Source: Actinomycetota bacterium (lineage in GTDB: Bacteria; Actinomycetota; Acidimicrobiia; Acidimicrobiales; CADCTF01). Taken from it: DNA of 64,000 nt. The position numbers were made by a program, and so were the translations under genes. The notes below the pieces were generated by a model that saw nothing but the letters and a program-made list of their open reading frames with translations, searched no databases and was not told the origin of the DNA. The stretch is taken from assembly GCA_019348255.1 (NCBI GenBank), contig JAHWJU010000002.1, positions 7,132-71,131 on the forward strand. Direction: 5' to 3'. Shown piece by piece: positions 3,746 through 54,528 of the stretch; within the stretch, counting starts at the first letter, position 1; every line of letters starts with the position of its first letter.

Positions 3746-3754
3746 GCTGGGACC

Positions 3755-3844: not shown

Positions 3845-3853
3845 GGCGACCGG

Positions 3854-4270
3854 CTAGCGGCGCAGGCCCTGGGTGAGCCGCCGGATCTCCTGTTCGAGCG
3901 GGCCCAGGCCCTCCACCTTGCCTAGGCACACCGCCACCCCGATCTCGGCGGCCGTGCGCTCGACCTCTTCGTCCACGAACGCCGTGTAGAGGATCACGTG
4001 CTGGTCCGGGCGCCGCTCGCGGATCCGCCGGGCCGTCTCCAGGCCGTTCATGGCCGGCATCTTGTAGTCGATCACCACCACGTCGGGATCGGCCTCGACC
4101 ACCGCCTCGATGGCCGACGGCCCGTCGGAGGCACCACCCACCACCTCGAAGCCGTCGACGCTCAACATGGTGGTGAGCATGCGACGGACGTGATCGGTGT
4201 CGTCCACCACGAGAACACGGATTGCAGGCGGCACAGGAGCGCCAGGGTAGGCCATGTCGTAACGGGTCAT
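3854..4270 (-). CDS. Stand-alone response regulator (receiver domain only)
   Basis: VLVVDDTDHVRRML...DVVVIDYKMPAMNGLE...ILYTAF receiver motifs, 138 aa, no output domain. ATGA overlap with the upstream CAP gene (4267-4270). Confidence 0.85.
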   Translation of the reverse strand: MTRYDMAYPGAPVPPAIRVLVVDDTDHVRRMLTTMLSVDGFEVVGGASDGPSAIEAVVEADPDVVVIDYKMPAMNGLETARRIRERRPDQHVILYTAFVDEEVERTAAEIGVAVCLGKVEGLGPLEQEIRRLTQGLRR

Positions 4271-5061
4271 CGCCCCTGATCCAGCGATCGCAGGCCCTCG
4301 AGCACCTGCAGCAGGCGGTCGGAGGGCACCAGGGGCCGGTGTGCGGCGCCCACCGCCTGCGCCTCGGGGGCCGGCGCCGGAGAGGGCGGAGGGGCCGGCG
4401 CCGGAGAGGGCGGAGTGGCCAGCGCCGGGGTCGCCGTTGGGCGAGGTGCCGGCGGGCGGGAGGCCTGCACCCGCGGGCGGGCCGTGGTGGCGGTGGCCGC
4501 CGGCGCAGGGGCCGTGGGGGCGGGAGCGCTGGGAGCGGGGGTTGCGGTGGTGGGCGGGGCGGACGCGGCGGTCGTCGGCGGCGCGCTACCGCCCCCGCCA
4601 CTGCGCAGCCGCATGAATATCTCGGTGACCCACATGCGCCCCTTGGCATCGGTGACGACCCCGACGCCGGCGAAGGTGAAGGCCGGGTCCAGGATCTTCG
4701 ACCGGTGCGACGAGCTGGCCATGAAGGCGGCGTGGACCTCGTCTACGGACGGCCCCACCCCCACGTTCTCCGCCAGCTTCTCCCAGTCCTGGGTCACCTC
4801 GGACGTGAGGTTGGGGTTGTGGGACAGGCTCTGGGCCTGCGCCATCTTCGCCGACCACCGTCGGGCCACAGCGGTGAGCTCGGCATCGGTGCGGAGCGTG
4901 CCCATACCCTTGTCGGCACGGGCTTCGTTGGCCCGCGCGACGAACGCGGCCTCGGCGCCGGCGTCGGCCGTCGCCGCGCTGGGCAGGAGCGCGCCAACCA
5001 GCCCGGCGCAGACGGCCACGGCCAGCATGACGCCCCGGTGCCGGCGCCGCAGGGGCCTCAT
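4267..5061 (-). CDS. Secreted CAP/SCP (PR-1-like) domain protein with long Pro/Ala/Thr-rich C-terminal tail
   Basis: Signal peptide (MLAVAVCAGLVGALLPSAATA). CAP motifs: LTAVARRWSAKMA...SHNPNL...ENVGVG...HAAFMASSSHRSKILDP...GVGVV. Then a ~100-aa PA-rich tail. Confidence 0.8.
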   Translation of the reverse strand: MRPLRRRHRGVMLAVAVCAGLVGALLPSAATADAGAEAAFVARANEARADKGMGTLRTDAELTAVARRWSAKMAQAQSLSHNPNLTSEVTQDWEKLAENVGVGPSVDEVHAAFMASSSHRSKILDPAFTFAGVGVVTDAKGRMWVTEIFMRLRSGGGGSAPPTTAASAPPTTATPAPSAPAPTAPAPAATATTARPRVQASRPPAPRPTATPALATPPSPAPAPPPSPAPAPEAQAVGAAHRPLVPSDRLLQVLEGLRSLDQGR

Positions 5062-5675
5062 GAGGAGTCCAGCGCGCGCAACAGATGCAGCACGAGGACC
5101 AGCCGGGCGGTTGCCAGGGGGACGGCGGACGGAAGCTCGGGGAAGGGCCGGGTGGCGGCGTCCCCCGTGGCCGAGCTCGACGGCGCCGGCGTAGCCGTGG
5201 CTCGGGATGCCGGCGCTGACGGCCGCAGCTGCATGAACTGGTGGGCGGTGAAGAGGGCGCCGCCCCGCCCCACCACGACGCCTACTCCCACGTGCCGGTA
5301 CCTAGGCTCCACCAGGTTGCGGTAGTGGGTGGGGCTGGCGACGAAAGCGGCATGCAGCTCGCCCACGGTGGTGCCCACCCCGACGTTCTCGCCCAGCTTC
5401 TGCCAGTCGGCCTGCACCACCTTGTCGAGCTTCGGGTTGTGCGAGATGCGATCCACCCTCGCCATCGCCGCCGCCCAGGATCGGGCCACCGCCGTCAGCT
5501 CCGGATGGAGGCCGAGCTGGGGCAGCCCCTTGGCCGCCCGCAGGCCGTTGATCCTGGCCACGAACTCCCGCTCGGCTTCGAGGGGCGAGGGTGGGACCTG
5601 GGCCGCCGCCGGCCCCACCGGCGCGACCAAGGCCCCGAGCACGGTCGCGAGGAGCAGGAAGGCCGAACGGCGCAC
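5058..5675 (-). CDS. Secreted CAP/SCP domain protein (paralogue of 4267..5061)
   Basis: GTG 5675 precedes the signal peptide VRRSAFLLLATVLGALVAPVGPAAA. CAP motifs: LTAVARSWAAAMA...SHNPKL...ENVGVG...HAAFVASPTHYRNLVEP...GVGVV. ATGA overlap with the downstream paralogue. The ORF part upstream of 5675 has no domain support. Confidence 0.75.
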   Translation of the reverse strand: MRRSAFLLLATVLGALVAPVGPAAAQVPPSPLEAEREFVARINGLRAAKGLPQLGLHPELTAVARSWAAAMARVDRISHNPKLDKVVQADWQKLGENVGVGTTVGELHAAFVASPTHYRNLVEPRYRHVGVGVVVGRGGALFTAHQFMQLRPSAPASRATATPAPSSSATGDAATRPFPELPSAVPLATARLVLVLHLLRALDSS

Positions 5676-5892
5676 CTCGGTGGCATCGACCCGACGGGCA
5701 CAACGGTTGAGGCCGTCCCCCCCGACGGCGGCCCAATCCCCCGAAAGGGGGGCAACCGGAAGGCGCCGGCCGCCCGCACCGGGCGGACCAGACGCCCCGC
5801 CGGCTACGACGCGACGCCCACCTCGGTACGGGGCCGAGACGATCCTCGGCCGCAACTTGCGGAACCGGGCCGGGCCAGCGAGCGTACGGGAC

Positions 5893-7389
5893 GTGAACCT
5901 GGCGACGATCATCGAGGGCCATCCGCAAGACGCGGTGGCCTTCGTCAGCCGAGGCGTGCCCACCACCTACGGCGAGCTGCGAGGCCGGGTGGCCGAGCTG
6001 CGCAGCGGGCTGGCGCTCCTCGGGGTGACGCCGGGGGACCGGGTGGCCATCGTCTCGGCCAACAACTGGTTGTTCGTCGTCAGCTACCTGGCGGTGACCG
6101 GCGTCGGCGCGGTGGCCGTGCCCCTCAACCCGACCAGCCCTTCGTCGGAGTTGCAGAGCGAGCTGTCGGCGGTGGGGGCGCGGCTGGCCATAGTCGGCCC
6201 CGGCGCCGCCGGAGCCATGGCCGGACTTGCCCCGGGGGCGACTTCCGTGGAGCGGGTGATCGTGCCCGACGGAGTGGAGCTGCCAGGAGCCACCCCCTTC
6301 GAGCAGCTGCTGGGCGGTGAGCCGGCGCCGGTGGTCGAGCGGGCCGATCACGACCTGGCGGTGCTGATGTTCACCGCCGGCACGAGCGGGGCTCCCCGGG
6401 CGGCCATGCTGAGCCATGGGAACCTGCGGTCCAACCTCGACCAGATGCAGCGCCATCCCGGCAGCGCCCTCAGCGCTGCCGACGTCTGCCTCGGCGTCCT
6501 GCCGATGTTCCACATCTTCGGGTTGAACGTGCTGTTGGGCCTCAGTCTCCACGCCGGCGCCTCGGTGGTGCTGATCGAGAGGTTCGACCCGGTGTCGGCG
6601 CTGGAGTCGATCCGCAACCACGGGATCACCGTGGTCGCCGGCGCCCCGCCGATGTTCCAGGCGTGGGCCGCGCTGGCGGAGCCGGACCCGGCGGCCATGG
6701 CAACGGTTCGCCTCGCCGTCTCGGGAGCGGCCCCCCTTCTCCCGCAGGTTGCTTCGGCTTTCGAGGCTCGTTTCGGGCGTCCCCTGTTCCAGGGCTACGG
6801 CCTCACCGAGGCCTCCCCTACCGTCAGCTCGTCCGTCATCGGCGGCATCCCCAAGCGCGGCTCGATCGGCCTTCCGCTTCCGGGCGTGGAGGTGCGCCTG
6901 GTGGACGAAGAGGGTGAAGACTCGTTGGTCGGCGACGCCGGGGAGATCCGGGTGCGGGGGCCGAACGTCTTCGCCGGCTACTGGGAGGATCCGGCCGCGT
7001 CCTCCGCCGTGCTGGGCGAGGACGGATGGCTGCGCACCGGCGACGTCGCCGTGGCCGATGACGACGGCTACCTCTACATCGTCGACCGGGCCAAGGACCT
7101 CATCCTGGTCTCGGGCTTCAACGTCTACCCGGCCGAGGTCGAAGAGGCGCTCCTCGACCACCCGGGGATCGCCGAGGTGGCGGTGGTGGGCGTGGGCCAC
7201 CCCCAAACCGGGGAGACGGTCAAGGCCTTCGTGGTAGCGGGACCCGGCCACCACCTGGAGGAGGACCAGGTGATCGACTTCTGCGCCTCGCGGTTGGCGC
7301 GCTACAAGTGCCCGACGAAGGTCGTCTTCATCCCCGAGCTGCCGCACGGGCTGGGCGGGAAGCTGTTGCGCCGGGCTCTTCAGAGCTAG
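5893..7389 (+). CDS. AMP-dependent acyl-CoA synthetase (FadD-like fatty-acid--CoA ligase)
   Basis: AMP-binding motifs: MFTAGTSGAPRAAMLSHGN, GYGLTEASP, TGDVAVADDDGYLYIVDRAKDLI, and C-terminal GKLLRR. GTG 5893 gives a 498-aa protein; the ORF upstream of it is Arg/Pro-rich read-through. Confidence 0.85.
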   Translation: MNLATIIEGHPQDAVAFVSRGVPTTYGELRGRVAELRSGLALLGVTPGDRVAIVSANNWLFVVSYLAVTGVGAVAVPLNPTSPSSELQSELSAVGARLAIVGPGAAGAMAGLAPGATSVERVIVPDGVELPGATPFEQLLGGEPAPVVERADHDLAVLMFTAGTSGAPRAAMLSHGNLRSNLDQMQRHPGSALSAADVCLGVLPMFHIFGLNVLLGLSLHAGASVVLIERFDPVSALESIRNHGITVVAGAPPMFQAWAALAEPDPAAMATVRLAVSGAAPLLPQVASAFEARFGRPLFQGYGLTEASPTVSSSVIGGIPKRGSIGLPLPGVEVRLVDEEGEDSLVGDAGEIRVRGPNVFAGYWEDPAASSAVLGEDGWLRTGDVAVADDDGYLYIVDRAKDLILVSGFNVYPAEVEEALLDHPGIAEVAVVGVGHPQTGETVKAFVVAGPGHHLEEDQVIDFCASRLARYKCPTKVVFIPELPHGLGGKLLRRALQS

Positions 7390-13254: not shown

Positions 13255-15318
13255 ATGAACAGCTCGACGAGACGGAGGACGGCGGCGGCGCTGGCGGCGC
13301 TGGCGCTGGCTGGAGGGTGCACCCGGTCCGCCGGGACAGGCGAGAACGGCGGCGGGCCGCCACCGCAGCTGCGGTTGGTGAACGTGCTCACGCCGTTCGC
13401 GGCCTGCGACGAGCTCCAGGACTACCTGCACGAGGAGGGCACGCGCCTGGTCGGCCCTTACGGGTTGGGCGGCTTTCACTACGGCCACGGCGGGCCGGTG
13501 GCCGTGGCCACAGATGCTGCGGCCGAGGCCGGTACGGGCGGGCGGGCGGGGGCCTCGCAAACCGCGGGCAAGACGGCGTCGGCTCCACCACAGGCCGGCA
13601 CCGACTACTCCGGGACCAACGTGCAGGAGGAGGGCGTCGACGAGCCCGACGCGGTCAAGACCGACGGCCGGCGCCTGGTGGCCATGACCCAGGGCAGGCT
13701 GCAGGTGGTCGATCTGAGCGGGGAGGGGCCGCGGCGCACGGCCAGCCTCGACATCGGCGTCGGGTACGTGCCGGGCGACCTGCTCCTCGTCGGTGACCGT
13801 GTTCTCGTCCTGCACACGGCGGACGCCGCGGGCCGGGGGAGACCGCAGCCGGCCACCGGTGGCGGCGATGCCCTCGACAGCCCCGTCGGGCCGGGTGGCT
13901 CCGCAAGGGTGCAGGTCACCGTGGTCGACATCTCCGACCTGACGGCGCCCAAGGTGGTGTCGGAGCTGCAGCTCGACGGCAGCCTGGTCGCGGCGCGAAT
14001 GGTCGACGGGGTGGCCAGGCTGGTGCTGCGCTCCGGCCCACCCCGCATCGACTTCACCTACCCGTCCGGCGATCGCGACAGCGTCAGGAAGGCCCAGGAG
14101 TCCAACCGGAAGCTGGTGGAGGCGAGCACCGTCGACGACTGGCTTCCCACCTACTCCTATTCCGAGCCGGGCCGGCCCGCGGCGTCGGCATCAGGCCGCC
14201 TCGGCGACTGCCGGGAAGTGGTGCGGCCCAGGGACTTCAGCGGGCTCGGCATGGTGTCGGTGGTCACCGTGGACGCCGCCGACCCTCGACCGGGACCGGC
14301 CGCCACCGTGGTGGGGGCTGCAGACCTGGTCTACGCCAGCGCCCGGAACCTCTACGTGACCAGCACCCGTTGGCCCGACGTAGCTTCGTCGGGAGTTCCC
14401 AGGTCTTCGGCCGAGGGGCCCACGGCCGCTCCACCTGCCAGCAGTGAGATCCACAAGTTCGACATCTCCGACAAGGTCCGCACCCGCTACCTGGCTTCCG
14501 GCAGCGTGCCCGGCCAGCTTCTCAACCAGTTCTCGATGTCCGAGCACGACGGTGATCTGCGCGTTGCCACCACCATCGACGGGATCAGCAGGGGCCGGGA
14601 CGAAGAAGGGGCCTCCGAGAGCCAGCTCACGGTCCTGCGACAGAAGGAGTCGGAGCTGGCTCTGGTCGGCAGCGTCGCCGGCCTCGGCAAGGGCGAACGC
14701 ATCTACGCGGTGCGCTTCCTCGGCGATCGGGGCTTCGTCGTGACCTTCCGCCAGACCGACCCGCTCTACGTGATCGACCTGGCCGACCCCGAGCGCCCGG
14801 CCGTGCGGGGCGAGCTCAAGATCCCCGGGTACTCGGCCTATCTCCACCCCGTGGGGGAGCACCGGCTGCTGGGCGTCGGCCAGGAGGCGACGGAACAGGG
14901 GCGGCCGCAGGGGACGCAGCTCTCCTTGTTCGACGTCTCCGACCCGTCCTCCCCCAAGCGTCTTTCCCAGGCGGTGCTGCCCCAGGCCCACTCCGAGGCC
15001 GAGTTCGACCACCACGCATTCCTCTACTGGCCCAGGACGGGGTTGACCTTGCTCCCGATCCAGTCCTACGGCCCTGCCGCCGGCCAGCGCGGGAGCGCGG
15101 GCATCGCAGCGCCGGAGATCCACCGGCAGTTCCTGGGCGCCGTGGGCTTCTCGGTGAGCGACAGGGAAGTCTCCGAGATCGGCCGGGTTCGGCACCGCAA
15201 CGGCATGCCCATCCGCCGGTCGTTGGTCGTGGGCGACCAGGTCCTCACCCTGTCCGACGGCGGCCTCCTGGCCAGCGACCTGCAGTCGCTGGCTGACCGG
15301 GCCTGGCTGTCCTTCTGA
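13255..15318 (+). CDS. Secreted beta-propeller-domain lipoprotein (COG4880 / Beta_propel-type)
   Basis: Signal peptide with lipobox-like LALAGGC. Family-typical blocks seen by eye: NVQEEGVDEPD.VKTDG, LNQFSMSEHDGDLRVATT, YAVRFLGDRGFVVTFRQTDPLYVIDLADPERP.V.GELKIPGYSAYLHP, SLFDVSD. Confidence 0.7.
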   Translation: MNSSTRRRTAAALAALALAGGCTRSAGTGENGGGPPPQLRLVNVLTPFAACDELQDYLHEEGTRLVGPYGLGGFHYGHGGPVAVATDAAAEAGTGGRAGASQTAGKTASAPPQAGTDYSGTNVQEEGVDEPDAVKTDGRRLVAMTQGRLQVVDLSGEGPRRTASLDIGVGYVPGDLLLVGDRVLVLHTADAAGRGRPQPATGGGDALDSPVGPGGSARVQVTVVDISDLTAPKVVSELQLDGSLVAARMVDGVARLVLRSGPPRIDFTYPSGDRDSVRKAQESNRKLVEASTVDDWLPTYSYSEPGRPAASASGRLGDCREVVRPRDFSGLGMVSVVTVDAADPRPGPAATVVGAADLVYASARNLYVTSTRWPDVASSGVPRSSAEGPTAAPPASSEIHKFDISDKVRTRYLASGSVPGQLLNQFSMSEHDGDLRVATTIDGISRGRDEEGASESQLTVLRQKESELALVGSVAGLGKGERIYAVRFLGDRGFVVTFRQTDPLYVIDLADPERPAVRGELKIPGYSAYLHPVGEHRLLGVGQEATEQGRPQGTQLSLFDVSDPSSPKRLSQAVLPQAHSEAEFDHHAFLYWPRTGLTLLPIQSYGPAAGQRGSAGIAAPEIHRQFLGAVGFSVSDREVSEIGRVRHRNGMPIRRSLVVGDQVLTLSDGGLLASDLQSLADRAWLSF

Positions 15319-15323
15319 TCCAG

Positions 15324-15349
15324 CCGCCCCGGTCCCCCTCCCGGGGCGG
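15324..15349 (+). terminator. GC-rich hairpin downstream of the beta-propeller gene (possible terminator/attenuator)
   Basis: CCGCCCCGG (15324-15332) pairs perfectly with CCGGGGCGG (15341-15349) around an 8-nt loop. A second pairing, CGCCCC (15353-15358) with GGGGCG (15376-15381), is followed by TCTTT. There is no long U-tract. Confidence 0.3.
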
Positions 15350-15393
15350 TTGCGCCCCTGTCGAAGGGGGACTTCGGGGCGTCTTTCCCGCCG

Positions 15394-15399
15394 TAGGCT
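15394..15399 (+). promoter_or_regulatory. -10-like hexamer TAGGCT placed for a leaderless hemB transcript
   Basis: TAGGCT fits the actinobacterial TANNNT -10 pattern and ends 6 nt before the hemB GTG (15406). There is no SD between them. Confidence 0.35.
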
Positions 15400-15405
15400 G
15401 CCGGC

Positions 15406-16395
15406 GTGTCCTTCCCCCAGCGCCGGCTCCGACGGCTCCGCCGCACCCCGGCGCTGCGCCGGCTCGTGTCCGAGGCCCGGCTCTCGGTGGACGACCTGGT
15501 GGCGCCGCTGTTCGTGCGCGAAGGCATCGACGAACCCGAGCCCGTTCCCTCGCTGCCGGGAGTGGTGCAGCACACGCGGGAGTCGCTGGTCAAACAAGCC
15601 CGGGTGCTCGCCTATCTGGACGTGCCGGCCATCATCCTGTTCGGCATCCCCGCGAGCAAGGACCGCACCGGAAGCCAAGCCTGGGACCCGGACGGGATCG
15701 TGCAGGTGGCGCTCCGGGATCTCCGGGACGAGCTGGGACACGACCTGGTGGTTATGGCTGACCTGTGCCTCGACGAGTACACCGACCATGGTCACTGCGG
15801 GGTTCTCTCGGCCACCGGCGCCGTCGACAACGACGCCACCCTCGAGTTGTACGGGATGGTGGCCCAGGCCCAGGCCGAGGCGGGCGCCTCCGTCGTGGCC
15901 CCCAGCGGCATGATGGATGGACAGGTGGCGGCGATCCGAGCCGCCCTCGACGACGCCGGCCACTCCTCCACCGCCATCCTCGCCTACGCAGCCAAGTTCG
16001 CGTCGGCCCTCTACGGTCCCTTCCGCCACGCGGTGCAGGTGGAGCTTCCGGTGGGCGACGACCGCAAGGACTACCAGCAGGACCCGGCCAACCGTCGAGA
16101 GGCCATCGCCGAGGTGCGGGCCGACGTCGAGGAGGGCGCCGACATGGTGATGGTGAAGCCCGCGCTCTCCTACCTCGATGTCATCTCCGACGCACGGGCC
16201 GCGGTCGACGTCCCCGTGGCCGCCTACCACGTGAGTGGCGAGTACTCGATGCTCAAGGCGGCGGCGGAGCGTGGTTGGATCGACGGCGAGGCGGTGGCGC
16301 TGGAGCAGATGGTGGCCATCAAGAGGGCGGGAGCCGACTTCATCCTCACCTACCTCGCCCGCGAGATGGCCGAGTCCTTCCACGCCCATGGCTGA
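15406..16395 (+). CDS. hemB: Porphobilinogen synthase (delta-aminolevulinate dehydratase)
   Basis: RRLRRTPALRRLV.E..L...DL..PLFV, VMADLCLDEYTDHGHCG, MMDGQV, ADMVMVKPAL.YLD, VSGEY motifs. Confidence 0.9.
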   Translation: MSFPQRRLRRLRRTPALRRLVSEARLSVDDLVAPLFVREGIDEPEPVPSLPGVVQHTRESLVKQARVLAYLDVPAIILFGIPASKDRTGSQAWDPDGIVQVALRDLRDELGHDLVVMADLCLDEYTDHGHCGVLSATGAVDNDATLELYGMVAQAQAEAGASVVAPSGMMDGQVAAIRAALDDAGHSSTAILAYAAKFASALYGPFRHAVQVELPVGDDRKDYQQDPANRREAIAEVRADVEEGADMVMVKPALSYLDVISDARAAVDVPVAAYHVSGEYSMLKAAAERGWIDGEAVALEQMVAIKRAGADFILTYLAREMAESFHAHG

Positions 16396-17650
16396 CAACA
16401 CCAACAGCGCCCTGTTCAAGCGGGCGCTGGAGGTGGTCCCGGGCGGCGTCAGTTCCCCGGTGCGGGCCTTCAAGTCGGTTGGCGGCACGCCCTATTTCGT
16501 GTCCCGGGCCGACGGGGCCTACGTCTGGGACGTGGAGGACCGCCGGTACCTCGACTACGTCCAGTCCTACGGCGCGTCGATCCTCGGCCACGCCCATCCC
16601 GAGGTGGTGGAGGCCATCAGGCAGGCCGCCGGCGAAGGCACCACGTTCGGCGCCCCCACCGAGCGCGAGGTTCTACTGGCCGAGGCGATCTGCGACCGGG
16701 TGGGCGCCGGGTGCGATCTCGTCCGCTTCGTCTCGAGCGGCACCGAGGCGGCCATGAGCGCGGTGCGGGTGGCCCGGGGGTTCACCGGGCGCAACCGGGT
16801 GGTGATGTTCGAAGGTTGCTACCACGGCCACAGCGACATGCTGCTGGCTGCCGGCGGCAGCGGCATGGCCACGCTCGGGTTGCCCGCTTCGGCGGGGGTG
16901 CCCCCTTCCGCGGTGGCCGAGACGATGGTCGTCCCCTACAACACCGTGCCTGACATCGACGACGACGTGGCCTGCGTCATCGTGGAGCCGATAGCCGCCA
17001 ACATGGGCCTCGTCCCGCCGGCGCCGGGCTTCCTGCAGGGACTGCGGGATGCCTGCGACCGCGCCGGAGCCTTGTTGGTCTTCGACGAGGTGATCACCGG
17101 GTTCCGCCTCGCCCGTGCCGGCGCGTCGGGGTTCACTGGCGTGCGTCCGGACCTGTGGACCTTCGGCAAGGTCATCGGCGGCGGCTTGCCGCTGGCTGCC
17201 TTCGCCGGCCGGCGCGAGGTGATGGAGGCGTTGGCCCCGGTGGGGCCGGTGTACCAGGCGGGCACCCTTTCCGGAAACCCGGTCGCCACCGCAGCCGGCC
17301 TGACGGTGCTGGGCCTCCTCGACGACGCCGCCTACAGCATGCTGGCCGGTCGAGCGGCCGAGCTGGGGGCGATGCTCGCCGGCGTCCTCAACGAGGTCAC
17401 CCCGGCCCAGGTCCCGGTGGTGGGCACCCTGGTGGGCGTGTTCTTCGGGGACGACCTGGTGACCACCTTCGCCGGCTCCCGGGCGTCGGCGACGACGGGA
17501 TGGTACGCCCGGTTCTTCAGGGCCATGCTCGAGCGGGGGGTGGCCCTGGCACCGGGCCCCTACGAGGTGATGTTCCCGAGCCTGGCCCACACCTGGGACG
17601 ACATCGAGCGGACGGTCGACCTCGCCCGCGCCGCCATCGCCGTCGCCTGA
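16388..17650 (+). CDS. hemL: Glutamate-1-semialdehyde 2,1-aminomutase
   Basis: LFKRALEVVPGGVSSPVRAF, SGTEAAMSAVRVARG, LVFDEVITGFR and GKVIGGGLP (PLP lysine) motifs. ATG 16388 overlaps the hemB end by 8 nt. Confidence 0.9.
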   Translation: MADNTNSALFKRALEVVPGGVSSPVRAFKSVGGTPYFVSRADGAYVWDVEDRRYLDYVQSYGASILGHAHPEVVEAIRQAAGEGTTFGAPTEREVLLAEAICDRVGAGCDLVRFVSSGTEAAMSAVRVARGFTGRNRVVMFEGCYHGHSDMLLAAGGSGMATLGLPASAGVPPSAVAETMVVPYNTVPDIDDDVACVIVEPIAANMGLVPPAPGFLQGLRDACDRAGALLVFDEVITGFRLARAGASGFTGVRPDLWTFGKVIGGGLPLAAFAGRREVMEALAPVGPVYQAGTLSGNPVATAAGLTVLGLLDDAAYSMLAGRAAELGAMLAGVLNEVTPAQVPVVGTLVGVFFGDDLVTTFAGSRASATTGWYARFFRAMLERGVALAPGPYEVMFPSLAHTWDDIERTVDLARAAIAVA

Positions 17651-17654
17651 GCGA

Positions 17655-18905
17655 TCAGCGTTCCGGCGTCACCCGGGCGATGGCGGCTACGGCCTTGTAG
17701 GCCGCCTCGGCCGGGCCCAACTCATTGGGCCGCAACAGGTTGGCCATGATCCGCAGCACCCACTCCATCAGCGTGCGCGAGTGCATCCCGGTGGACACGA
17801 GCAGCCGCATCAGCTCCGGCCGCCCGATGATCTTCACGAAGGCGCGGGCCACCTTGTAGTAGAGCCCGTAGGCCGCCTGCAGCTGGCTGTCGTAGGTCTG
17901 CAGCAACAAGTCGTTGCCGGTGACGAGGGCGCGGTCGAGCACGGAGGCAGCCAGGCGGCCGGTCTCGTAGGCATAGGCGATGCCTTCGCCGTTGAACGGG
18001 TTGATGGCGCCGCCGGCGTCGCCGGTGACCAGGTAGGTCTGGCCGGCGTGGGGTCCCACCGACAGCGCCATCGGCAGACGCCCGCCGGTGGGCGGGCCGC
18101 ACGACGTTTCCGGTGAGAGGCCCCAGGAGGCAGGGGCGTAGTCGACGAAGGACTCCATCAGGTGGGAGGTGTTGACGGACTTCCACTGGTTGAACGTCGA
18201 GAGAAGCCCGATGCCCACGTTCACCCGCCCGTCGCCGACGGGGAATATCCACCCGTATCCCGGCAGGACGTTGCCGGCCTTGTCCCGGATGTCGAGGTGG
18301 CTCTCGATCCACGGCTCGTCGTGGCGGGGCGAGCTGTAGTAGCCGCGGATGGCCATGCCGAGTGGGTACTGCCGGTTGCGGGAGGTCCCCAGCGCCCTTC
18401 CGAACCGGGAGTTGGCACCGTCGGCCACCACCACGTAGCGAGCCCGGACATCCTCGACGCGACCGCCTTCGGCCTTCCGCTTCACCGAGGCACCCTGCAC
18501 GACCCCGCCCTCGATCAGCGGCGCCAGCGCCTCCGACTCCTGCCAGAGGGTGGCACCGGCCTTGACCGCCCGCTCCGCCACCAACTCGTCGAGGTCATGG
18601 CGGGTGATCACGTAGCCGTAGCTGGGGAAGTCGGGGTGCTCGGGCCACCGCAGCTCGAGGGTGCGCCCGAACGCGATCGAGCGCAGGCCGTCGAAGCGGT
18701 GGTGCCCCGCCAGCGTCTCGCCCAGACCCATGTCCTCGAGCTGGCGCACCGCCCGGGGCGTGAGCCCGTCGCCGCAGGTCTTTTCCCGCGGGTAGCGCTT
18801 CTTCTCCACGACCAGGACGTCGTGGCCGTGCTCGGCCAGCCAGTAGGCGCAACTGGCTCCGGAAGGCCCTCCGCCCACCACCAGGACGTCCGGGTGGGCA
18901 GTCAT
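17655..18905 (-). CDS. Geranylgeranyl reductase family FAD-dependent oxidoreductase (menaquinone-reductase-like)
   Basis: ATG 18905. DVLVVGGGPSGASCAYWLAEHGHDVLVVEKK...KTCGDGLTP FAD motifs and the later GDAGGAINPFNGEGI. The ORF part upstream of 18905 overlaps the cytochrome c gene. Confidence 0.8.
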   Translation of the reverse strand: MTAHPDVLVVGGGPSGASCAYWLAEHGHDVLVVEKKRYPREKTCGDGLTPRAVRQLEDMGLGETLAGHHRFDGLRSIAFGRTLELRWPEHPDFPSYGYVITRHDLDELVAERAVKAGATLWQESEALAPLIEGGVVQGASVKRKAEGGRVEDVRARYVVVADGANSRFGRALGTSRNRQYPLGMAIRGYYSSPRHDEPWIESHLDIRDKAGNVLPGYGWIFPVGDGRVNVGIGLLSTFNQWKSVNTSHLMESFVDYAPASWGLSPETSCGPPTGGRLPMALSVGPHAGQTYLVTGDAGGAINPFNGEGIAYAYETGRLAASVLDRALVTGNDLLLQTYDSQLQAAYGLYYKVARAFVKIIGRPELMRLLVSTGMHSRTLMEWVLRIMANLLRPNELGPAEAAYKAVAAIARVTPER

Positions 18906-18910
18906 GACGA

Positions 18911-19603
18911 CTACTCGCCCGGGGCCGACGCCTCGGCGGCCTCGGCGTCGGGACTGGCGGCCGAGCACTCCGGAGGAGGCTTCTCCTTGCCGAACGTGAC
19001 CCGCTCGTAGCACACGACAGCGACGATCTCGTCCTTGCTCAAGCTGTCGGAGAAGCCGGGCATACCACCGGTGGCGACCTTGCCGGTCGCCCCGTAGGGC
19101 TGACCCTGCACCGGCTTGGAGCCGGCCTCGATCCACGCGACATGGTCGGCGAAGACAGGGAAGGTCTTGACGGTGTCGGCCATGGCCGGGCCCACTCCGC
19201 CGCCGCCCGATGGCCCATGGCAGCCCGAGCAGCCCGACGAGCGGTAGATGCCGGCGCCGATCGACACCGGATCCGAGGCCTTCTCGTCGGACCTTTCGCC
19301 GAAGGCGCCGCCGTAGAGGATGGCCCACAGCGGCAGGGCGGCTAGCACCGGCATGGCCCACACCGGCACCCGCTCCTTGCGGGGCGGGGGCGGGGGTGGG
19401 CCGATGTAGGCCGGTGCGGCCGGCGCCTTGGCGGGCGCGGGCGCAGATGTCGCCGGCTTGTCGGCCGCGCCCGAGGGGGCGGGGCTGGCGGCAGCGGCCG
19501 GCTCGACGGCCGAGGAACTCGCCCCCCCGCCCTCGCCTCCGCCTCCCATGGCGGCCCGCCGTTCCTTCGAGCGGCGAAGAAGGTGTTCGGGAACCTCGGT
19601 CAC
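18911..19603 (-). CDS. Membrane-anchored monohaem class I cytochrome c
   Basis: One CSGCH haem-binding motif with a downstream GGMPGF (Met ligand region). One TM segment (VWAMPVLAALPLWAILYGGAF) follows a Gly/Ala/Pro-rich linker. GTG start; N-terminus is MTEVPEHLLRRSKERR. Confidence 0.8.
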   Translation of the reverse strand: MTEVPEHLLRRSKERRAAMGGGGEGGGASSSAVEPAAAASPAPSGAADKPATSAPAPAKAPAAPAYIGPPPPPPRKERVPVWAMPVLAALPLWAILYGGAFGERSDEKASDPVSIGAGIYRSSGCSGCHGPSGGGGVGPAMADTVKTFPVFADHVAWIEAGSKPVQGQPYGATGKVATGGMPGFSDSLSKDEIVAVVCYERVTFGKEKPPPECSAASPDAEAAEASAPGE

Positions 19604-19845: not shown

Positions 19846-20322
19846 TTGGTTGCGTTTTTTTTCTCGCTGATTCTCGCGTTGGCGATGACGGGCCTGATCG
19901 TGCGCATGGCGTCCAAGCGCCCTGCCGGCAGCCCCCTCACCTGGGGTGAGGCGTTCCTGGCCGCCCTGTTCGTCTTCACGCTTTTGTTCCTGCTCTACGG
20001 GGTCATCCCCCACCAGTGGCTGGCCTGGGCTGACAACGAGCTCGAGTGGCGTTCCGACAAAGTGGGTATACCCATGGGTCCCATCAAGAGTGGCCCCGCC
20101 ATCCGCGACAACCTGCTCTTCCCCGACGGGATCCCGATGCCCAACGGCCGGTTCATCGTCACCGCCGAGGTCCTGCGCGACGTCATCGCCGCCGGCCTCT
20201 ACATCGTGTTCCTGGTGGCCCAGATCAAGGCGTGGCTGTGGTGGCAGAAGCGGGGTCAGCGACCGGCCGAGACGCCGGAGCTCACCTCCGCATACGGCCG
20301 TCCCCTGGTGAGAAAGGCCTGA
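19846..20322 (+). CDS. Small 3-TM membrane protein, unknown function, first gene of the Rieske/b6 cluster
   Basis: TTG 19846 is preceded by the purine-rich AGGAAGGGCGAAGGGCGAA; ATG 19885 is an alternative start. Three hydrophobic segments with a conserved-looking loop (GVIPHQWLAWADNELEWRSD). 6-nt gap to the ferredoxin gene. Confidence 0.55.
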   Translation: MVAFFFSLILALAMTGLIVRMASKRPAGSPLTWGEAFLAALFVFTLLFLLYGVIPHQWLAWADNELEWRSDKVGIPMGPIKSGPAIRDNLLFPDGIPMPNGRFIVTAEVLRDVIAAGLYIVFLVAQIKAWLWWQKRGQRPAETPELTSAYGRPLVRKA

Positions 20323-20328
20323 TCCGAC

Positions 20329-20742
20329 ATGGCAAGGACCGACGCCAACCCCCCGCTCCCGAGCTTCCCGGGCGACTACGTCCTCGAGGAGATCCCTCAC
20401 GAGGACCTGAGCAAGTCCGTCAAGCCGAAGCAGTTCCTCCACATCGACCAGGCCGAGTGCATCCTGTGCGAAGGCTGCGTGGACATCTGCCCCTGGAAGT
20501 GCATCCACATGCTCGATGCCGAAACCGTGGCGGAGGCGACCAACACCGAACAGCCGGGCATCGACCCCGACGACCACGTCATCTTCGTGGTCGACGAGGA
20601 CGTCTGTACGCGCTGCGGTCTCTGCGTCGACCGCTGTCCCACCGGCGTCATCATCATGGGTAAGGCCGGCGTGGCCTCCCGTGACGGCGACGAGCACCAG
20701 CGCGACAACAAGCACGGCTACGCCTACGGCATGAGATTCTAG
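20329..20742 (+). CDS. Soluble 2[4Fe-4S] (dicluster) ferredoxin-type protein
   Basis: Two CxxCxxCxxxCP motifs (CILCEGCVDICP and CTRCGLCVDRCP). No signal peptide or TM segment. Confidence 0.85.
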   Translation: MARTDANPPLPSFPGDYVLEEIPHEDLSKSVKPKQFLHIDQAECILCEGCVDICPWKCIHMLDAETVAEATNTEQPGIDPDDHVIFVVDEDVCTRCGLCVDRCPTGVIIMGKAGVASRDGDEHQRDNKHGYAYGMRF

Positions 20743-20752
20743 GAGAGGGTCA

Positions 20753-21538
20753 GTGGCCAAGCGCATGAGCCTCCGGGAGCGGATCCCGAAGCCGCCCAAG
20801 CCGGCGGACATGCTCAACTCCATCCAGGGGAGCCAGTTCTGGTCGTCGGTCTTCCGGCCCGGATCGATCTTCCGCAAGGGCTACACCGACAGCCCCCGGA
20901 ACCGCTCGTACGTGGTCATGAACTCGGTGCTGTACCACCTGCACCCGGTCAAGGTGAAGCGCCACGCAGTCAAGGTGAGCTACACGCTCTGTTTGGGCGG
21001 ATTGAGCTTCTTCTTGTTCATCCACCTGACGGTGACCGGCATCTTCCTGATGTTCTTCTACCGGCCGACCGCAGCGCAGGCGTGGAACGACATCAAGACG
21101 CTGCAGACCTCGGTGACCTTCGGGCTCCTCGTGCGCAACATGCACCGGTGGGGCGCCCACCTCATGGTCATCTCGGTGTTCCTGCACATGGCCCGCGTCT
21201 TCTACCACGGCGCCTACAAGCCGCCGCGGGAGTTCAACTGGGTGATCGGGGTCATCTTGTTGACCTTGACCCTGTTGCTCTCCTTCACCGGGTACCTGCT
21301 GCCGTGGGACCAACTGGCTCTGTGGGCCGTCACCGTGGGCACCAACATGATGGGCTACACCCCCGTCTTCGGGCGCCAGGTGCGGTTCGTCCTCCTGGGA
21401 GGGGTGGAGATCGGCACCGACACCGTTCTGCGGTGGTACGTCCTCCACGTCCTCATGTTCCCGTTCGTTATCGTCATCTTCATGGCCATCCACTTCTGGA
21501 GAGTCCGCAAGGATGGCGGCATCTCCGGGCCGCTGTGA
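20753..21538 (+). CDS. Cytochrome b6-type subunit (N-terminal cytochrome b domain only; split cytochrome b)
   Basis: Four TM helices carrying the bis-haem histidines (NMHRWGAHLMV..FLHM..FYHG; RWYVLHVL....MAIHFW). The protein ends after helix D, as in b6/QcrB-type proteins. Confidence 0.85.
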   Translation: MAKRMSLRERIPKPPKPADMLNSIQGSQFWSSVFRPGSIFRKGYTDSPRNRSYVVMNSVLYHLHPVKVKRHAVKVSYTLCLGGLSFFLFIHLTVTGIFLMFFYRPTAAQAWNDIKTLQTSVTFGLLVRNMHRWGAHLMVISVFLHMARVFYHGAYKPPREFNWVIGVILLTLTLLLSFTGYLLPWDQLALWAVTVGTNMMGYTPVFGRQVRFVLLGGVEIGTDTVLRWYVLHVLMFPFVIVIFMAIHFWRVRKDGGISGPL

Positions 21539-21554
21539 TGCGAAAGGTCTCACG

Positions 21555-22298
21555 ATGACCGAGATCCCCGAGCACCTCCTCAAGAGATCGAAGGCTCGCC
21601 GCGAGCAAGCTGGCGCCGGCAAGGGCGACGCCGGGAACGGCGGCGGCGGTGGCGGCGAGAGCGCCGACGACGGCGAGAAGATCCCCGCTCGGCTGCTGCA
21701 GGGCGAGGGCGGCTCGTCGGGTGGCGCGGCCACCGCCACCGTGGCCCGACCGGCGGCAGGTGCGCCGGCCCAGAGCCCCGGCGCCGTGGGCCCGGCCGGC
21801 CACACCCAGAGGCTCCTCACGGTCGTCAAGGCGGGGTCCATCCAGGACGTCAAGTCGGTCCCCACCGACAAGGTTCACACGTGGCCCCACCTGCTGGTGG
21901 GAGAGTTCGTCGCCGCCCTGGCCATGACCGCCTTCCTCTTCGTCTTCGCCATCTTCGTCAACGCCCCGCTCCTGGGCATGGCCAACTTCAACCTCACCCC
22001 CAACCCGTCCAAGGCGCCCTGGTACTTCCTCGGGCTGCAGGAGCTGCTCACGATGTTCCACCCCATGGTCGCCGGCGTCACCATCCCGGGCATGGGGCTC
22101 ATCGTCATGGGCGCTGCCGGTTACATCGACAAGAACCCCTCGAACAAGCCCGAGGACCGCAAGTTCGCCATCGCCCTCATGACGTTCTTCCTCATGTTCT
22201 GGGCGGTCCTCGTCATCATCGGGTCGTTCTTCCGGGGTGAAGGCTTCAACTTCATCTATCCCTGGGACCAGGGCGTGCACGAGATCTTCGACCTGTGA
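21555..22298 (+). CDS. Subunit-IV-type protein (C-terminal cytochrome b domain) with ~100-aa N-terminal extension
   Basis: PNPSKAPWYFLGLQELL (PEWY-equivalent Qo motif) plus three TM segments. ATG 21555; the N-terminus MTEIPEHLLKRSKARR is followed by a Gly-rich linker. Confidence 0.75.
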   Translation: MTEIPEHLLKRSKARREQAGAGKGDAGNGGGGGGESADDGEKIPARLLQGEGGSSGGAATATVARPAAGAPAQSPGAVGPAGHTQRLLTVVKAGSIQDVKSVPTDKVHTWPHLLVGEFVAALAMTAFLFVFAIFVNAPLLGMANFNLTPNPSKAPWYFLGLQELLTMFHPMVAGVTIPGMGLIVMGAAGYIDKNPSNKPEDRKFAIALMTFFLMFWAVLVIIGSFFRGEGFNFIYPWDQGVHEIFDL

Positions 22299-23143
22299 CC
22301 ACCACCACCATTCTCATGCTGGCCGCCCTCGTGCTGTTGGTGTTCGGAGCCGTCTTCGTCTTCGCCACCACCCGCAGCCGCGACCGGGCCGCCGCGGTGG
22401 GCGCGCTGTCGCGGGAGACGCGCAAGTCGGACCGCAGCGAAGCCGCACTCGTGGAGGAAGGGGCCAAGACCACCACAGGCAGGGCCGTGGAACGGGCGGC
22501 TGCGCTCGAGCGACGGGGCGGTGCCCTGGTGGAGGCGCGGCCGGCGCCACCGGCGGTACGGGCTCCACTGGAGCCCGACGCCTACGGCGTCACCCGGCGG
22601 CAGTTCTTCAACCGGGGCATCACGGCGCTGTTCGCACTTGGCCTGGCCGGCTTCAGCACCCAGACGATCGCCTTCCTGTGGCCGTCCCTGTCCGGGGGTT
22701 TCGGCTCCAAGATCAGAGCGGGCAAGCTCGACGAGATCCTCCGGGAGGTGGCCGACAAGAAGGAGCCGTTCTACGTTCCCGAGGGTCGCTTCTACGTGAA
22801 CCCGTATCCCTCCGACGACCTCTCCAAGGCCGCCAACCACTACACCGGCGAAGTGCTGTCGGGCATGGAGCAGGGAGTGGTGGCGCTCTACCAGAAGTGC
22901 GTCCACCTCGGCTGCCGCGTGCCGTGGTGCAAGACCTCGCAGTGGTTCGAGTGCCCCTGCCATGGGTCGCAGTACAACCGGGTGGGCGAGCACAAGGCCG
23001 GCCCTGCTCCCCGGGGCCTCGATCGCTTCGGCGTCTCCGTTTCTGGCGGCATGGTCGTGGTCGACACCAAAGAGATCATCCAGGGCCCGCCCATCGGCAC
23101 AAACACCACCGGCCAGGAGGCCGAGGGTCCCCACTGCGCATGA
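22295..23143 (+). CDS. Rieske [2Fe-2S] iron-sulfur subunit (QcrA-like)
   Basis: CVHLGC and CPCHGS cluster-binding boxes. There is an N-terminal TM segment and an internal TRRQFFNRG Tat-like segment before a further TM. 4-nt overlap with the upstream gene. Confidence 0.85.
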   Translation: MTTTTILMLAALVLLVFGAVFVFATTRSRDRAAAVGALSRETRKSDRSEAALVEEGAKTTTGRAVERAAALERRGGALVEARPAPPAVRAPLEPDAYGVTRRQFFNRGITALFALGLAGFSTQTIAFLWPSLSGGFGSKIRAGKLDEILREVADKKEPFYVPEGRFYVNPYPSDDLSKAANHYTGEVLSGMEQGVVALYQKCVHLGCRVPWCKTSQWFECPCHGSQYNRVGEHKAGPAPRGLDRFGVSVSGGMVVVDTKEIIQGPPIGTNTTGQEAEGPHCA

Positions 23144-24192
23144 CCGCCGCAAACCTGCTCGCCGCCACCGCCCCCGAGCGCATCGGGTTCTTCGTCGCTG
23201 TGGCCATGGTCGTCGCGTGGGCCGTCTACGTCTTCGTCACCAGCCGCAACTCCGACCCCGACCAGAAGCCAGGTTCGGAGATCGAGCTTGCGCCCAACCG
23301 CAAGCCCTACTTCAACGACGAGATCCTGGAGGGGCCGCGCCTCGAGCGGGCGCTCGGTTGGGGCCTTCTCCTCCTCGTCGTCACGGCCATCGGTCCCCTC
23401 CTGTACTGGCTCAACGAGCCAGGCCGCCAGGCCGGCGCGGTGGACGAGTTCGACCGAAAGGCCGTGGAACGCGGTCGACAACTGTTCCTCCCCACCGACT
23501 CCCCGGAGCATGGCGCCCACTTCGGTTGCGCCACCTGTCACGGCTCCAAGGGCCAAGGCGGCGTGGCGCCCTACTCCCTGACGGACTACCTGGGCGCGAC
23601 CCGCAAGGTCGAGTGGGAGGCACCACCGCTCGACACGGCCCTGCTCAAGTTCGACAAGAAGGAGCTTCGTGCGATCCTCGTCTACGGCCGGGCCAACACC
23701 CCGATGCCGGCGTGGGGGATCGAGGGCGGCGGCCCCATGAACGACCAGCAGATCGACGATCTGGTCGCATACATCGACAGCCTCCAGATATCGCCCCAGA
23801 AGGCCCGGCAACGATCGTTCCAAGAGGCGCTCACGCAGGCGACGATCGACGGGAAGGTCACCGACCCCCTGAACCCGGCGCTGGCCATAGACGGCGAAAC
23901 CCTGTTCAAGACCAACTGCGCCCGCTGCCACACCAAGGGTTGGGCCTACGGCGAACCTGACGTGCAGGGGGGCGGGGCGTTCGGCCCCAACCTCACGAAC
24001 GGCCTTACCCTGCGCCAGTTCCCGGACCTCGACGCCATGATCGAGTTCGTCACCGAGGGCTCCGAGTACGGCGAAGCCTACGGCGAGCGTGGCCAGGGCG
24101 GCGACGAGGGTGGCGGGATGCCGGGCTTCGGCCAGGTGCTGACCGCCGCCCAGATCCGGGCCATCGTGGAGTACGAGAGAGGCTTGTTGTGA
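23140..24192 (+). CDS. Membrane-anchored dihaem cytochrome c (QcrC-like)
   Basis: Two CxxCH motifs (CATCH, CARCH), two N-terminal TM segments, and an ATGA overlap with the Rieske gene. Confidence 0.85.
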   Translation: MTAANLLAATAPERIGFFVAVAMVVAWAVYVFVTSRNSDPDQKPGSEIELAPNRKPYFNDEILEGPRLERALGWGLLLLVVTAIGPLLYWLNEPGRQAGAVDEFDRKAVERGRQLFLPTDSPEHGAHFGCATCHGSKGQGGVAPYSLTDYLGATRKVEWEAPPLDTALLKFDKKELRAILVYGRANTPMPAWGIEGGGPMNDQQIDDLVAYIDSLQISPQKARQRSFQEALTQATIDGKVTDPLNPALAIDGETLFKTNCARCHTKGWAYGEPDVQGGGAFGPNLTNGLTLRQFPDLDAMIEFVTEGSEYGEAYGERGQGGDEGGGMPGFGQVLTAAQIRAIVEYERGLL

Positions 24193-25028
24193 GTGGGTCG
24201 TTGCTGGCGGCGTTGGCGTGGGACCCACAGATCCGTGGTGCCCTGATCGTCCTCACCTCTTTCGTCATCCTCCCCGGCAGCGTCTTCATGCTGTTGTCCA
24301 CCAACACCGGGGCCAGGCTCGGGTTCTTGCTCGCCGCCGCCGGCCTCACGGGCTGGATGGCGGTGATGGGTTGGATCTGGGTCGCCTACGGCATCGGCAT
24401 CAAGGGCGACCCGCCCACCTGGAAGGTGCACGACGTCGTCACCGGGTCGGTCAGCGCACAGTCGACCTACGAACCGGCGGAGACGTTCCCGCGCGGCTGG
24501 AAGAAGTTGAAGCCCGGGGACCCGGTTCTGGCTGACGCCACTGCCGCTGCCGGCAAGGTTCTGGCGCCGGCGGAGGAGGGGGGCGAAGAGGGCGGTGGTC
24601 ACGGCGGCGAGGAGGCCGAGGTCAAGACCGAGCGAACCTTCGAACCCGCCTTCGACAGCCCCGAGGACTACGCCGTCATCGGCGGGTTCCGCAAGGGAGG
24701 CGAGAGCTACTTCCTGCCCGGGGGCCTCATCGAGGTCAACGACGGCCCCTTCAAGGGTTGGTTGCACAAGCCGCACTACGTCGTGCTGCAGGCCCGACCG
24801 GTCATCAAAGAGCCGTCCCTGACCGGGGCGCCGGTCAAGCCGGCACCTGACCCCACCATGCCGCCGACGAGCGTGATCATGGTGCGCGACCTCGGACGCC
24901 TGCGCTTCCCCTCGACGATGGTGGCCTTGTCGATGACGATCGTCTTCATGATCGTCTGCAACGCCCTGCACCGACGGGACAAGCAGGTCATGGCGGCAAG
25001 GGCGGCACTGGAACCCGCGACGGGCTAG
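24189..25028 (+). CDS. Membrane protein, unknown function, last gene of the Rieske/b6 cluster
   Basis: GTGA overlap with the cytochrome c gene. Two N-terminal TM segments, a ~170-aa extracytoplasmic region containing an acidic/Gly patch, and one C-terminal TM segment. 9 nt upstream of nuoA. Confidence 0.5.
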
Positions 25029-49917: not shown

Positions 49918-49923
49918 CGGCCG

Positions 49924-54527: not shown

Positions 54528-54528
54528 C

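Follow-up and report, generated by a model that had tools for sequence, protein, structure and literature searches.

We analysed a seven-gene cluster that encodes a Rieske/cytochrome b6-type complex, a small ferredoxin and two membrane proteins (here g1 and g7) in an Actinomycetota bacterium of the order Acidimicrobiales. The cluster lies in a stretch of 64,000 nucleotides (nt), called the window below, which covers positions 7,132 to 71,131 of contig JAHWJU010000002.1 (GenBank assembly GCA_019348255.1). Open reading frame (ORF) listing and translation placed seven ORFs, all on the + strand, within window positions 19846-25028:

19846-20322, + strand: g1, membrane protein of 158 amino acids (aa) with three predicted transmembrane (TM) segments
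20329-20742, + strand: 2[4Fe-4S] ferredoxin, 137 aa, matching Fer4 families
20753-21538, + strand: cytochrome b6, 261 aa, Pfam Cytochrome_B
21555-22298, + strand: subunit IV, 247 aa (ATG at 21555), Pfam Cytochrom_B_C
22295-23143, + strand: Rieske [2Fe-2S] protein, 282 aa, Pfam Rieske
23140-24192, + strand: dihaem cytochrome c, 350 aa, Pfam Cytochrom_C/Cytochrome_CBB3
24189-25028, + strand: g7, membrane protein of 279 aa, no family match

A preliminary description of this locus, made from the sequence alone, had reported seven packed genes with gaps of 16 nt or less and three 4-nt overlaps. The ORF listing confirmed this: the spacings from g1 to the subunit IV gene are 6, 10 and 16 nt, and the remaining three junctions are 4-nt overlaps. 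Only 9 nt separate the end of g7 from the start of nuoA (25038). A scan for promoters and terminators found no site above shuffled expectation inside the cluster and no terminator-like site at the g7-nuoA junction, and the nuoA-N operon that follows is probably co-transcribed with g7. The G+C content of the window is 66-74%, and its closest relatives are Acidimicrobiales genomes throughout.

The gene order is strongly conserved. From more than 590 matches to b6 (one genome per species) we took 80 Acidimicrobiales loci. The seven genes were colinear in 63 of the 64 loci with room for them, and g1 stood upstream of the ferredoxin gene in 76 of the 80. The median identity to the window protein was highest for b6 (86%), followed by the ferredoxin (66%; 79 loci), subunit IV (63%), NuoA (58%), the Rieske protein (53%), g1 (40%), the cytochrome c (38%) and g7 (35%). 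As its median identity trails only that of b6, the ferredoxin is the second most conserved product. A metagenome scan that was seeded solely on distant ferredoxin homologues also gave 80 loci. In these, b6 followed the ferredoxin gene directly wherever there was room (57/57), all five downstream genes were present in 21/21, and a g1-like gene lay upstream in 63/67.

The distant homologues that served as seeds come from lineages outside Acidimicrobiales, on contigs of metagenome-assembled genomes (MAGs) labelled to phylum only (Actinomycetota). These lineages have kept the complete module at 62-70% identity for b6 and 38-47% for the ferredoxin, with APWY in subunit IV. The proteins at the g1 position were recovered by the Acidimicrobiales g1 profile (E 9e-9 to 6e-4), and the homologues at the g7 position reached E values of 8e-22 to 2.5e-15. 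In Acidimicrobiales nuoA comes after g7; in the distant lineages, genes for cytochrome c maturation (ccs/ccm), cytochrome oxidase (cox) and Rex flank the module in place of nuo. The module thus occurs in lineages with diverged proteins and other flanks, and its linkage is therefore old, specific and independent of the flanking genes. These findings show that the ferredoxin, g1 and g7 have been inherited with the b6 core as one module across divergent Actinomycetota lineages, and the neighbourhood check proposed in the preliminary description came out strongly in favour of a lasting association of the ferredoxin and membrane genes with b6 and Rieske.

Two features of the distant flanks were recorded in addition. 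A gene for a Rex-type repressor (Put_DNA-bind_N and CoA_binding domains) lies on the opposite strand just 3' of the module in loci L081 (12467-13150), L083 (12829-13491) and L085 (14881-15558), which hints at NADH/NAD+-dependent control of the module. L083, with 58% G+C, carries System I (Ccm) genes beside the module (1030-7372), whereas the other lineages have ResB/CcsA.

The ferredoxin has two complete CxxCxxCxxxCP motifs (C44-P55 and C93-P104), and the eight cluster cysteines were invariant across 36 sequences. No TM segment, signal peptide or twin-arginine translocation (Tat) motif was predicted, and the protein is acidic (net charge -13). Its layout is NuoI-like, with ~38 residues between the cluster motifs. 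It shares 33% identity over 72 aa, at equal spacing, with the window's own NuoI, which was also its best NCBIfam family; the score of 44.9 bits was under the cut-off of 113 and below every NuoI cut-off. Outside the cluster motifs, both the N- and the C-terminal tail are conserved. Just past the first motif, W56 and a ninth cysteine, C58 (CPWKC), are invariant even among sequences of 31-42% identity; the NuoI of a second nuo operon in the window (see below) has a similar CPDWC.

The family is small and specific: a search of 1.8 billion representative proteins gave only 155 clusters at E<=1e-10. A search for close homologues returned orthologues from Acidimicrobiales only, all with at least 76% identity, and the family also includes stand-alone homologues at only 38-47% identity. 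Database annotations read 'ferredoxin' or '4Fe-4S binding protein' and nothing further. The ferredoxin is ~40% identical to the dicluster domain at the C-terminus of GltD-like NAD(P)H oxidoreductases. We considered a docking module common to both and dropped it, the one context inspected (L084) being without cytochrome b. The nearest non-orthologue, P0262 (L086, 672-1085; 49% identity), has its first motif disrupted by an insertion (CIQCGAGYGC). Its gene is followed by one for a 511-aa protein without family match and adjoins no cytochrome b; P0262 is probably a decayed or re-used paralogue.

Cytochrome b is split between adjoining genes into a four-helix b6, the helix number expected for a b6-type protein, and a three-helix subunit IV. 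Pfam matches and the TM scan were in line with what had been proposed for this locus: a b6/subunit IV split, a ferredoxin that looks cytoplasmic, and two uncharacterised membrane proteins. The b6 protein matched Pfam Cytochrome_B with E 9e-45. Its best PDB matches were cyanobacterial and chloroplast b6 (2e-46), whereas actinobacterial QcrB reached only ~1e-23. The haem-ligand histidines H131/H145 (14 residues apart) and H232/H247 (15 apart) have the b6-type spacing, and the C-terminus keeps the RK(D/Q)G(G)ISGPL sequence typical of b6. All 81 b6 sequences contained TLCLGG, an instance of the CxGG haem ci motif. In b6f complexes, the CxGG cysteine is the covalent ligand of haem ci. We thus predict haem ci in this b6 from the invariant cysteine.

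Both cytochrome b proteins have N-terminal extensions. That of b6 is basic and ~55 aa long (net charge +12 over the first 75 residues, +19 for the whole protein) and holds a conserved FRPGSxFRKGYxDSPRNR. In subunit IV, the Cytochrom_B_C match covers residues 144-225, and three TM segments were found by the TM scan. The APWY Qo motif was present in 74/74 sequences (KAPWYFLG in the window protein). The hydrophilic extension of ~115 aa in front of these parts consists of PEHLL motif(s), a low-complexity linker and the conserved segment RLLTVVKAGSIQDVKSVPTDKVHTWPHLL; the conserved segment RLLTVVKAGSIQDVKSVPTDK closes it immediately before a WPHLL stretch, which we take to resemble the WPNDLL motif of PetD. 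A search of PDB sequences with subunit IV gave no match. According to the conservation profile, both extensions are still conserved in the distant lineages. The models of Geobacter ExtP and ExtQ (205 and 134 positions) align only from residue 55 of b6 and residue 112 of subunit IV. In b6f, both b6 and subunit IV have their N-termini at the membrane's n-side.

The Rieske protein carries the cluster boxes CVHLGC and CPCHGSQY. From the N- to the C-terminus it consists of an extra TM segment, a cytoplasmic linker, the Tat motif RRQFF and an anchor helix, with a b6f-like cluster domain at the end. In 69/70 orthologues CxCH is followed by the S-Y signature, which has been taken to indicate a potential of >260 mV, and Rieske proteins of the APWY clade have been predicted to be of Mid+ to high potential (PMC4122944). 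A high-potential centre is thus predicted here from sequence. The top PDB matches were Kuenenia Kuste4569 and Kustd1480 (9rk4 and 9rk3), level with b6f PetC (E 1e-13 to 8e-13). For these two anammox proteins, +303 and +335 mV have been measured (PMC12954380). With NCBIfam models, PetC scored 64 bits and QcrA 23.5 bits (cut-off 275). By these matches the Rieske domain is nearer to b6f PetC and the anammox Rieske proteins than to actinobacterial QcrA, and the label 'QcrA-like' in the preliminary description was imprecise.

The same applies to 'QcrC-like' for the cytochrome c. This protein is membrane-anchored, with two class I domains and the motifs CATCH and CARCH. Membership in the QcrC family was rejected (39.7 bits, cut-off 200), and we regard the protein as a generic class I pair. 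The subunit varies: only a single CxxCH was found in the distant lineages L081 (10810-11553) and L085 (10769-11464).

Besides its three predicted TM segments, g1 has a basic C-terminal tail. Its start is ambiguous. The GTG at 19846 gives 158 aa including the first TM segment, and GenBank (KY458_00485) uses the ATG at 19885 for a protein of 145 aa; the first ~20 residues show little conservation among the orthologues. No sequence match to g1 was found in Pfam, NCBIfam or the PDB. In g7, a TM hairpin at the N-terminus is followed by a beta-rich domain, for which a location outside the membrane is predicted, and then by a C-terminal TM helix. An AlphaFold2 model of g7 had a predicted local distance difference test score (pLDDT) of 81.7. 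A fold search of the PDB with this model gave a best E value of 0.47, and neither Pfam nor NCBIfam yielded a match. All 476 homologues of g7 are unnamed or labelled hypothetical; one of them, KY458_00515 from an 'Actinobacteria bacterium' MAG, has 100% identity to the window protein. We also considered g1 and g7 as the haem ci maturation factors CCB1-4 (System IV) and rejected this, as neither matches any Pfam family at E<=0.01, and so none of the CCB families.

The following features surround the cluster in the window:

13255-15318: Beta_propel-domain protein, 687 aa, upstream context
15406-16395, + strand: hemB, upstream context
within 16235-17650, + strand: hemL, upstream context
17655 to ~18900, - strand: MenJ-like menaquinone/geranylgeranyl-type reductase, upstream context
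18911-19603, - strand: membrane-anchored monohaem cytochrome c, divergent to the cluster, Pfam Cytochrom_C/Cytochrome_CBB3, CSGCH, one TM segment
25038-40648, + strand: complete nuoA-N operon of 14 genes (NuoA, E, F, G and I identified; others by ORF order)
45328-56049, + strand: second complex-I-like operon of 11 genes in the order nuoA, B, C, D, H, I, J, K, L, M, N

The haem- and quinone-related genes upstream (13255-19361) and the other genes of the window make up a respiratory 'island'. The second nuo operon, 5 kb past the 14-gene operon, is missing nuoE, F and G between D and H. The electron donors of such NuoEFG-less complex-I-like enzymes are generally held to be of the ferredoxin type, and this operon may be connected with the ferredoxin of the Rieske/b6 module.

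We compared the module with known Rieske/cytochrome b complexes. With the b6f and b6c complexes of the green clade (including those of Bacillota and Heliobacteria) it has in common the identical split point of cytochrome b, the histidine spacing (14, 15), CxGG, the RK(D)GGISGPL C-terminus and a PetC-like CPCHGSQY. It differs from them in the Qo motif, which is APWY here and PEWY or PDWY there, and in the acceptor, which is a membrane-anchored dihaem cytochrome c here and cytochrome f or a fused cytochrome c there. Only here do b6 and subunit IV have long N-terminal extensions that are cytoplasmic and conserved. The co-inherited ferredoxin, g1 and g7 are without counterpart in the green clade, and the module contains no PetG/L/M/N-type genes. 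By its sequence motifs, the complex belongs to the b6-type green clade and carries the defining motifs of the APWY group.

The APWY clade was defined by Kao & Hunte (2014), who placed Ilumatobacter inside it; the delta-proteobacteria, which include Geobacter, are among its groups, and no member had been characterised at that time (PMC4122944). The same authors recorded the split cytochrome b of Acidimicrobidae (Ilumatobacter) (PMC4122944). We found no description of the ferredoxin, g1 or g7 in the open full-text literature (subscription-only papers were outside our scope). The split cytochrome b is already known, and the co-inherited ferredoxin and two membrane proteins, with their phylum-wide conservation, look undescribed. 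Other APWY members such as Geobacter ExtOPQ (the GSU2932-2933 cluster) have in common with our complex APWY, the split cytochrome b with CxGG and a Mid+ to high-potential Rieske signature. They differ in the haem ci motif, which is TLCLGG here, WCMGG having been reported as typical of the clade, and the N-terminal extensions of b6 and subunit IV are missing from the ExtP and ExtQ models. The Geobacter cluster has, as described, multihaem cytochromes and no ferredoxin; the ext components include 10-, 12-, 5- and 2-haem cytochromes (PMC2825233). Some b6 orthologues are named 'selenite/tellurite reduction operon b-type cytochrome ExtP' by the NCBI pipeline (e.g. MGH2793265.1 and MEX2557087.1), which looks like over-annotation by an equivalog model.

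In the anammox bacterium Kuenenia, the operons Kuste4569-4574 and Kustd1480-1485 also have a gene for an iron-sulfur (FeS) protein inside a Rieske/b6 operon. The likeness to anammox clusters drawn in the preliminary description was apt: the complexes there carry cytoplasmic-side FeS/NAD(P) oxidoreductase subunits (PMC12954380), placed on that side by modelling. A high-potential Rieske protein combined with menaquinone is common to both systems, although it is only predicted here. The anammox FeS partner, however, is a large protein, an NAD(P)/FAD oxidoreductase in which clusters form a chain, whereas here it is a bare dicluster ferredoxin of 137 aa; a Pfam search of the seven module proteins found no Pyr_redox or NAD-binding domain, which sets the complex apart from the anammox type. 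An octahaem or HAO-like subunit is likewise absent here, and the host, an actinomycetotal one, has genes of aerobic respiration next to the module.

QcrCAB of Mycobacterium and Corynebacterium comes from the same phylum, has the same menaquinol-to-cytochrome c job and a dihaem cytochrome c, and its Rieske protein also has extra N-terminal membrane and cytoplasmic parts. QcrB, however, is one chain of ~540 aa (535-573 aa in PDB chains) without the haem ci cysteine, and there is no ferredoxin in that system. The contrast with the model actinobacteria drawn in the preliminary description was therefore upheld: QcrB scored 117.3 bits (cut-off 500) and, like QcrA and QcrC above, was far under its cut-off, so the complex is not the bcc complex of model actinobacteria. 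The ferredoxin itself can be compared with NuoI of complex I and PsaC of photosystem I. All have two CxxCxxCxxxCP motifs, and the ferredoxin, with its NuoI-like insertion, is a small acidic protein that would likewise act as an electron wire at the cytoplasmic face. It departs from them in having specific tails at both ends and one more invariant cysteine, and each nuo operon of the window already has a NuoI.

Tight packing, linkage as a module and a conservation of the ferredoxin above that of the Rieske protein lead us to favour, tentatively, a menaquinol:cytochrome c oxidoreductase with a dedicated FeS port, the ferredoxin, on its cytoplasmic side. The flanking nuo, cox, ccs and haem-synthesis genes indicate that the complex is the hosts' ordinary menaquinol:cytochrome c oxidoreductase. 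The ferredoxin would be a stoichiometric or dedicated partner that docks at the n face on the basic extensions of b6 and subunit IV, close to haems bn and ci. We infer docking on such a basic cytoplasmic platform from the acidic ferredoxin, its conserved tails, the conserved basic extensions and the comparison with Geobacter. Once docked, the ferredoxin might serve as a third electron port between the low-potential chain and cytoplasmic low-potential carriers, and g1 and g7 may be accessory membrane subunits that hold the ferredoxin or stabilise the dimer. The preliminary description had suggested the ferredoxin, g1 and g7 as physical subunits, electron exchange between ferredoxin and n-side haems, and bifurcation; we retain all three as inferences.

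As to direction, we favour an exit of electrons through the ferredoxin, in which the 2[4Fe-4S] protein would be reduced by the low-potential branch, though only by a narrow margin over an entry of electrons from reduced ferredoxin. The quinone is presumably menaquinone, as the MenJ-like neighbour gene hints. Acidimicrobiia contain MK-9(Hn). A high-potential Rieske centre acting on low-potential menaquinol would make haem bp very reducing, which is the argument that Barends and colleagues have made for anammox: by the Bergdoll symmetry rule, haem bp there may be as low as -475 mV, enough for reduction of NAD(P)+ via cytoplasmic-side FeS clusters (PMC12954380).

Several points weigh against the assumption of an FeS port. 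A subunit, a dedicated soluble partner and an assembly factor could all give rise to such gene linkage. The positive-inside rule accounts for part of the charge complementarity, and the correlation between extensions and ferredoxin rests on a single ferredoxin-less comparator, Geobacter Ext. No gene for a dehydrogenase or reductase that could make use of the port lies in the module. The Rieske potential and the type of quinone are predictions, with the MenJ-like neighbour as the only hint of menaquinone, and an aerobic heterotroph has no obvious need for reduced ferredoxin made from quinol. Finally, an AlphaFold2 model of the ferredoxin alone had a pLDDT of only 58.8, with disordered tails, and was unfit for a fold search.

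The same architecture could also work in reverse, the ferredoxin being an entry port through which electrons from 2-oxoacid:ferredoxin oxidoreductases and similar enzymes reach haem ci and the Qi site, so that the complex would act as a ferredoxin:menaquinone reductase. The invariant haem ci cysteine is consistent with this, as are the retained RK(D/Q)G(G)ISGPL of b6 and WPHLL of subunit IV, which fit an intact Qi pocket. Reviews cited in PMC5600118 suggest that haem cn accepts electrons from ferredoxins, and ferredoxin:quinone reduction has long been proposed for b6f in cyclic electron flow. We nevertheless consider this alternative somewhat unlikely, since the NuoEFG-less enzyme of the window is a more efficient candidate for ferredoxin oxidation, a predicted high-potential Rieske protein with APWY would be unnecessary for such a role, and the module has no linked gene for a donor enzyme. 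The ferredoxin, g1 and g7 might instead be biogenesis or regulatory factors outside the catalytic path, acting in haem ci attachment or as an FeS switch labile to O2 or NO. The haem ci cysteine requires a cytoplasmic-side attachment route, and no machinery for this is known beyond the CCB system of oxygenic phototrophs; Bacillota are not known to have CCB homologues. A dedicated maturation factor would also show strict linkage to b6, and the predicted disorder of the ferredoxin tails is compatible with such a role. Yet neither g1 nor g7 has a Pfam match, and the ferredoxin exceeds both the Rieske protein and subunit IV in conservation, whereas assembly factors usually fall behind the core subunits. 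Moreover, its gene lies between those for g1 and b6 at distances of 6-10 nt, which speaks for matched expression, and the conserved extensions that b6 and subunit IV carry point to a permanent interface. Biogenesis factors therefore seem rather unlikely to us. An ordinary b6c-type complex III with a merely co-transcribed housekeeping ferredoxin and two unrelated membrane proteins would explain the generic database names and the generic cluster-binding core. This is improbable, given that the module survives where b6 is 62-70% and the ferredoxin 38-47% identical and the flanks are wholly different, that b6 adjoined the ferredoxin in every ferredoxin-seeded locus with room, that the ferredoxin family is small, and that the sole look-alike found away from cytochrome b (P0262) has a degenerate first motif.

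The remaining two alternatives concern the location of the ferredoxin and the function of the module. Signal-less FeS proteins, e.g. DmsB, are co-exported with Tat partners, and the Rieske protein does carry a twin-arginine motif; the ferredoxin could thus be a Tat hitchhiker on the Rieske protein that relays electrons between the Rieske centre and cytochrome c on the p-side. It is very improbable that it does so: the module already has a dihaem cytochrome c as a normal acceptor, the extensions, new and conserved, belong to N-termini that are n-side in b6f, and the ferredoxin gene adjoins b6, not the Rieske gene. That the module is an ExtP/ExtQ system for selenite/tellurite reduction could be concluded from the 302.6 bits of b6 on NF040969 (ExtP; cut-off 290) and from GenBank orthologues so named. 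However, subunit IV reached only 52.8 bits on ExtQ (cut-off 150), there is no multihaem cytochrome in or beside the module, and the flanks are haem-synthesis, nuo and cox genes. We find this assignment barely credible and rejected it; the ExtP match reflects only the common cytochrome b subfamily.

The FeS port that we favour could be part of a respiratory electron bifurcator, in which a high-potential Rieske centre oxidises low-potential menaquinol and so drives the second electron via haems bp, bn and ci into the bound 2[4Fe-4S] protein, combined with a loop for re-entry. We regard this extension of the hypothesis as quite unlikely. The reduced ferredoxin, made in an aerobe, could re-enter the menaquinone pool via the NuoEFG-less enzyme encoded 20 kb downstream (45328-56049). 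Such a respiratory 'cyclic' flow would turn otherwise wasted driving force into extra proton pumping. An ancestor composed of a cytoplasmic FeS dehydrogenase, cytochrome b and a Rieske protein has been proposed for bc complexes (PMC5600118), and the loop, if true, would make the module a living example of it.

Acidimicrobiia and related deep Actinomycetota abound in soils, oceans, sponges and activated sludge. The module looks like their standard complex III, with three of the seven proteins still unstudied. Should the ferredoxin be a true cytoplasmic-side subunit, the module would offer the simplest natural case in which an FeS protein is connected to a b6 complex containing haem ci. Some of the hosts are culturable and grow aerobically. 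The disputed role of b6f as a ferredoxin:quinone reductase in cyclic flow (ferredoxin to or from haem ci) would then become testable, as would bifurcation by Rieske/cytochrome b complexes to low-potential acceptors, which has been proposed but is unproven in anammox. Such a subunit would also bear on the origin of bc complexes from membrane-anchored FeS dehydrogenases.

The monohaem cytochrome c gene lay upstream on the opposite strand in 66 of the 80 Acidimicrobiales loci, and its product is a likely electron acceptor or shuttle for the complex. Its N-terminal motif TEVPEHLLRRSK is common to subunit IV: both proteins open with a cytoplasmic peptide of the form (M)TE(I/V)PEHLL(K/R)RSK (21555-21605, + strand, in subunit IV; 19603-19550, - strand, in the cytochrome). 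Most Acidimicrobiales subunit IV proteins contain the peptide twice, the second copy ('IPAHLLERSK') following ~45-60 residues on (loci L003-L080). Judged by its sequence, the PEHLL peptide has the look of a short linear motif for docking or targeting.

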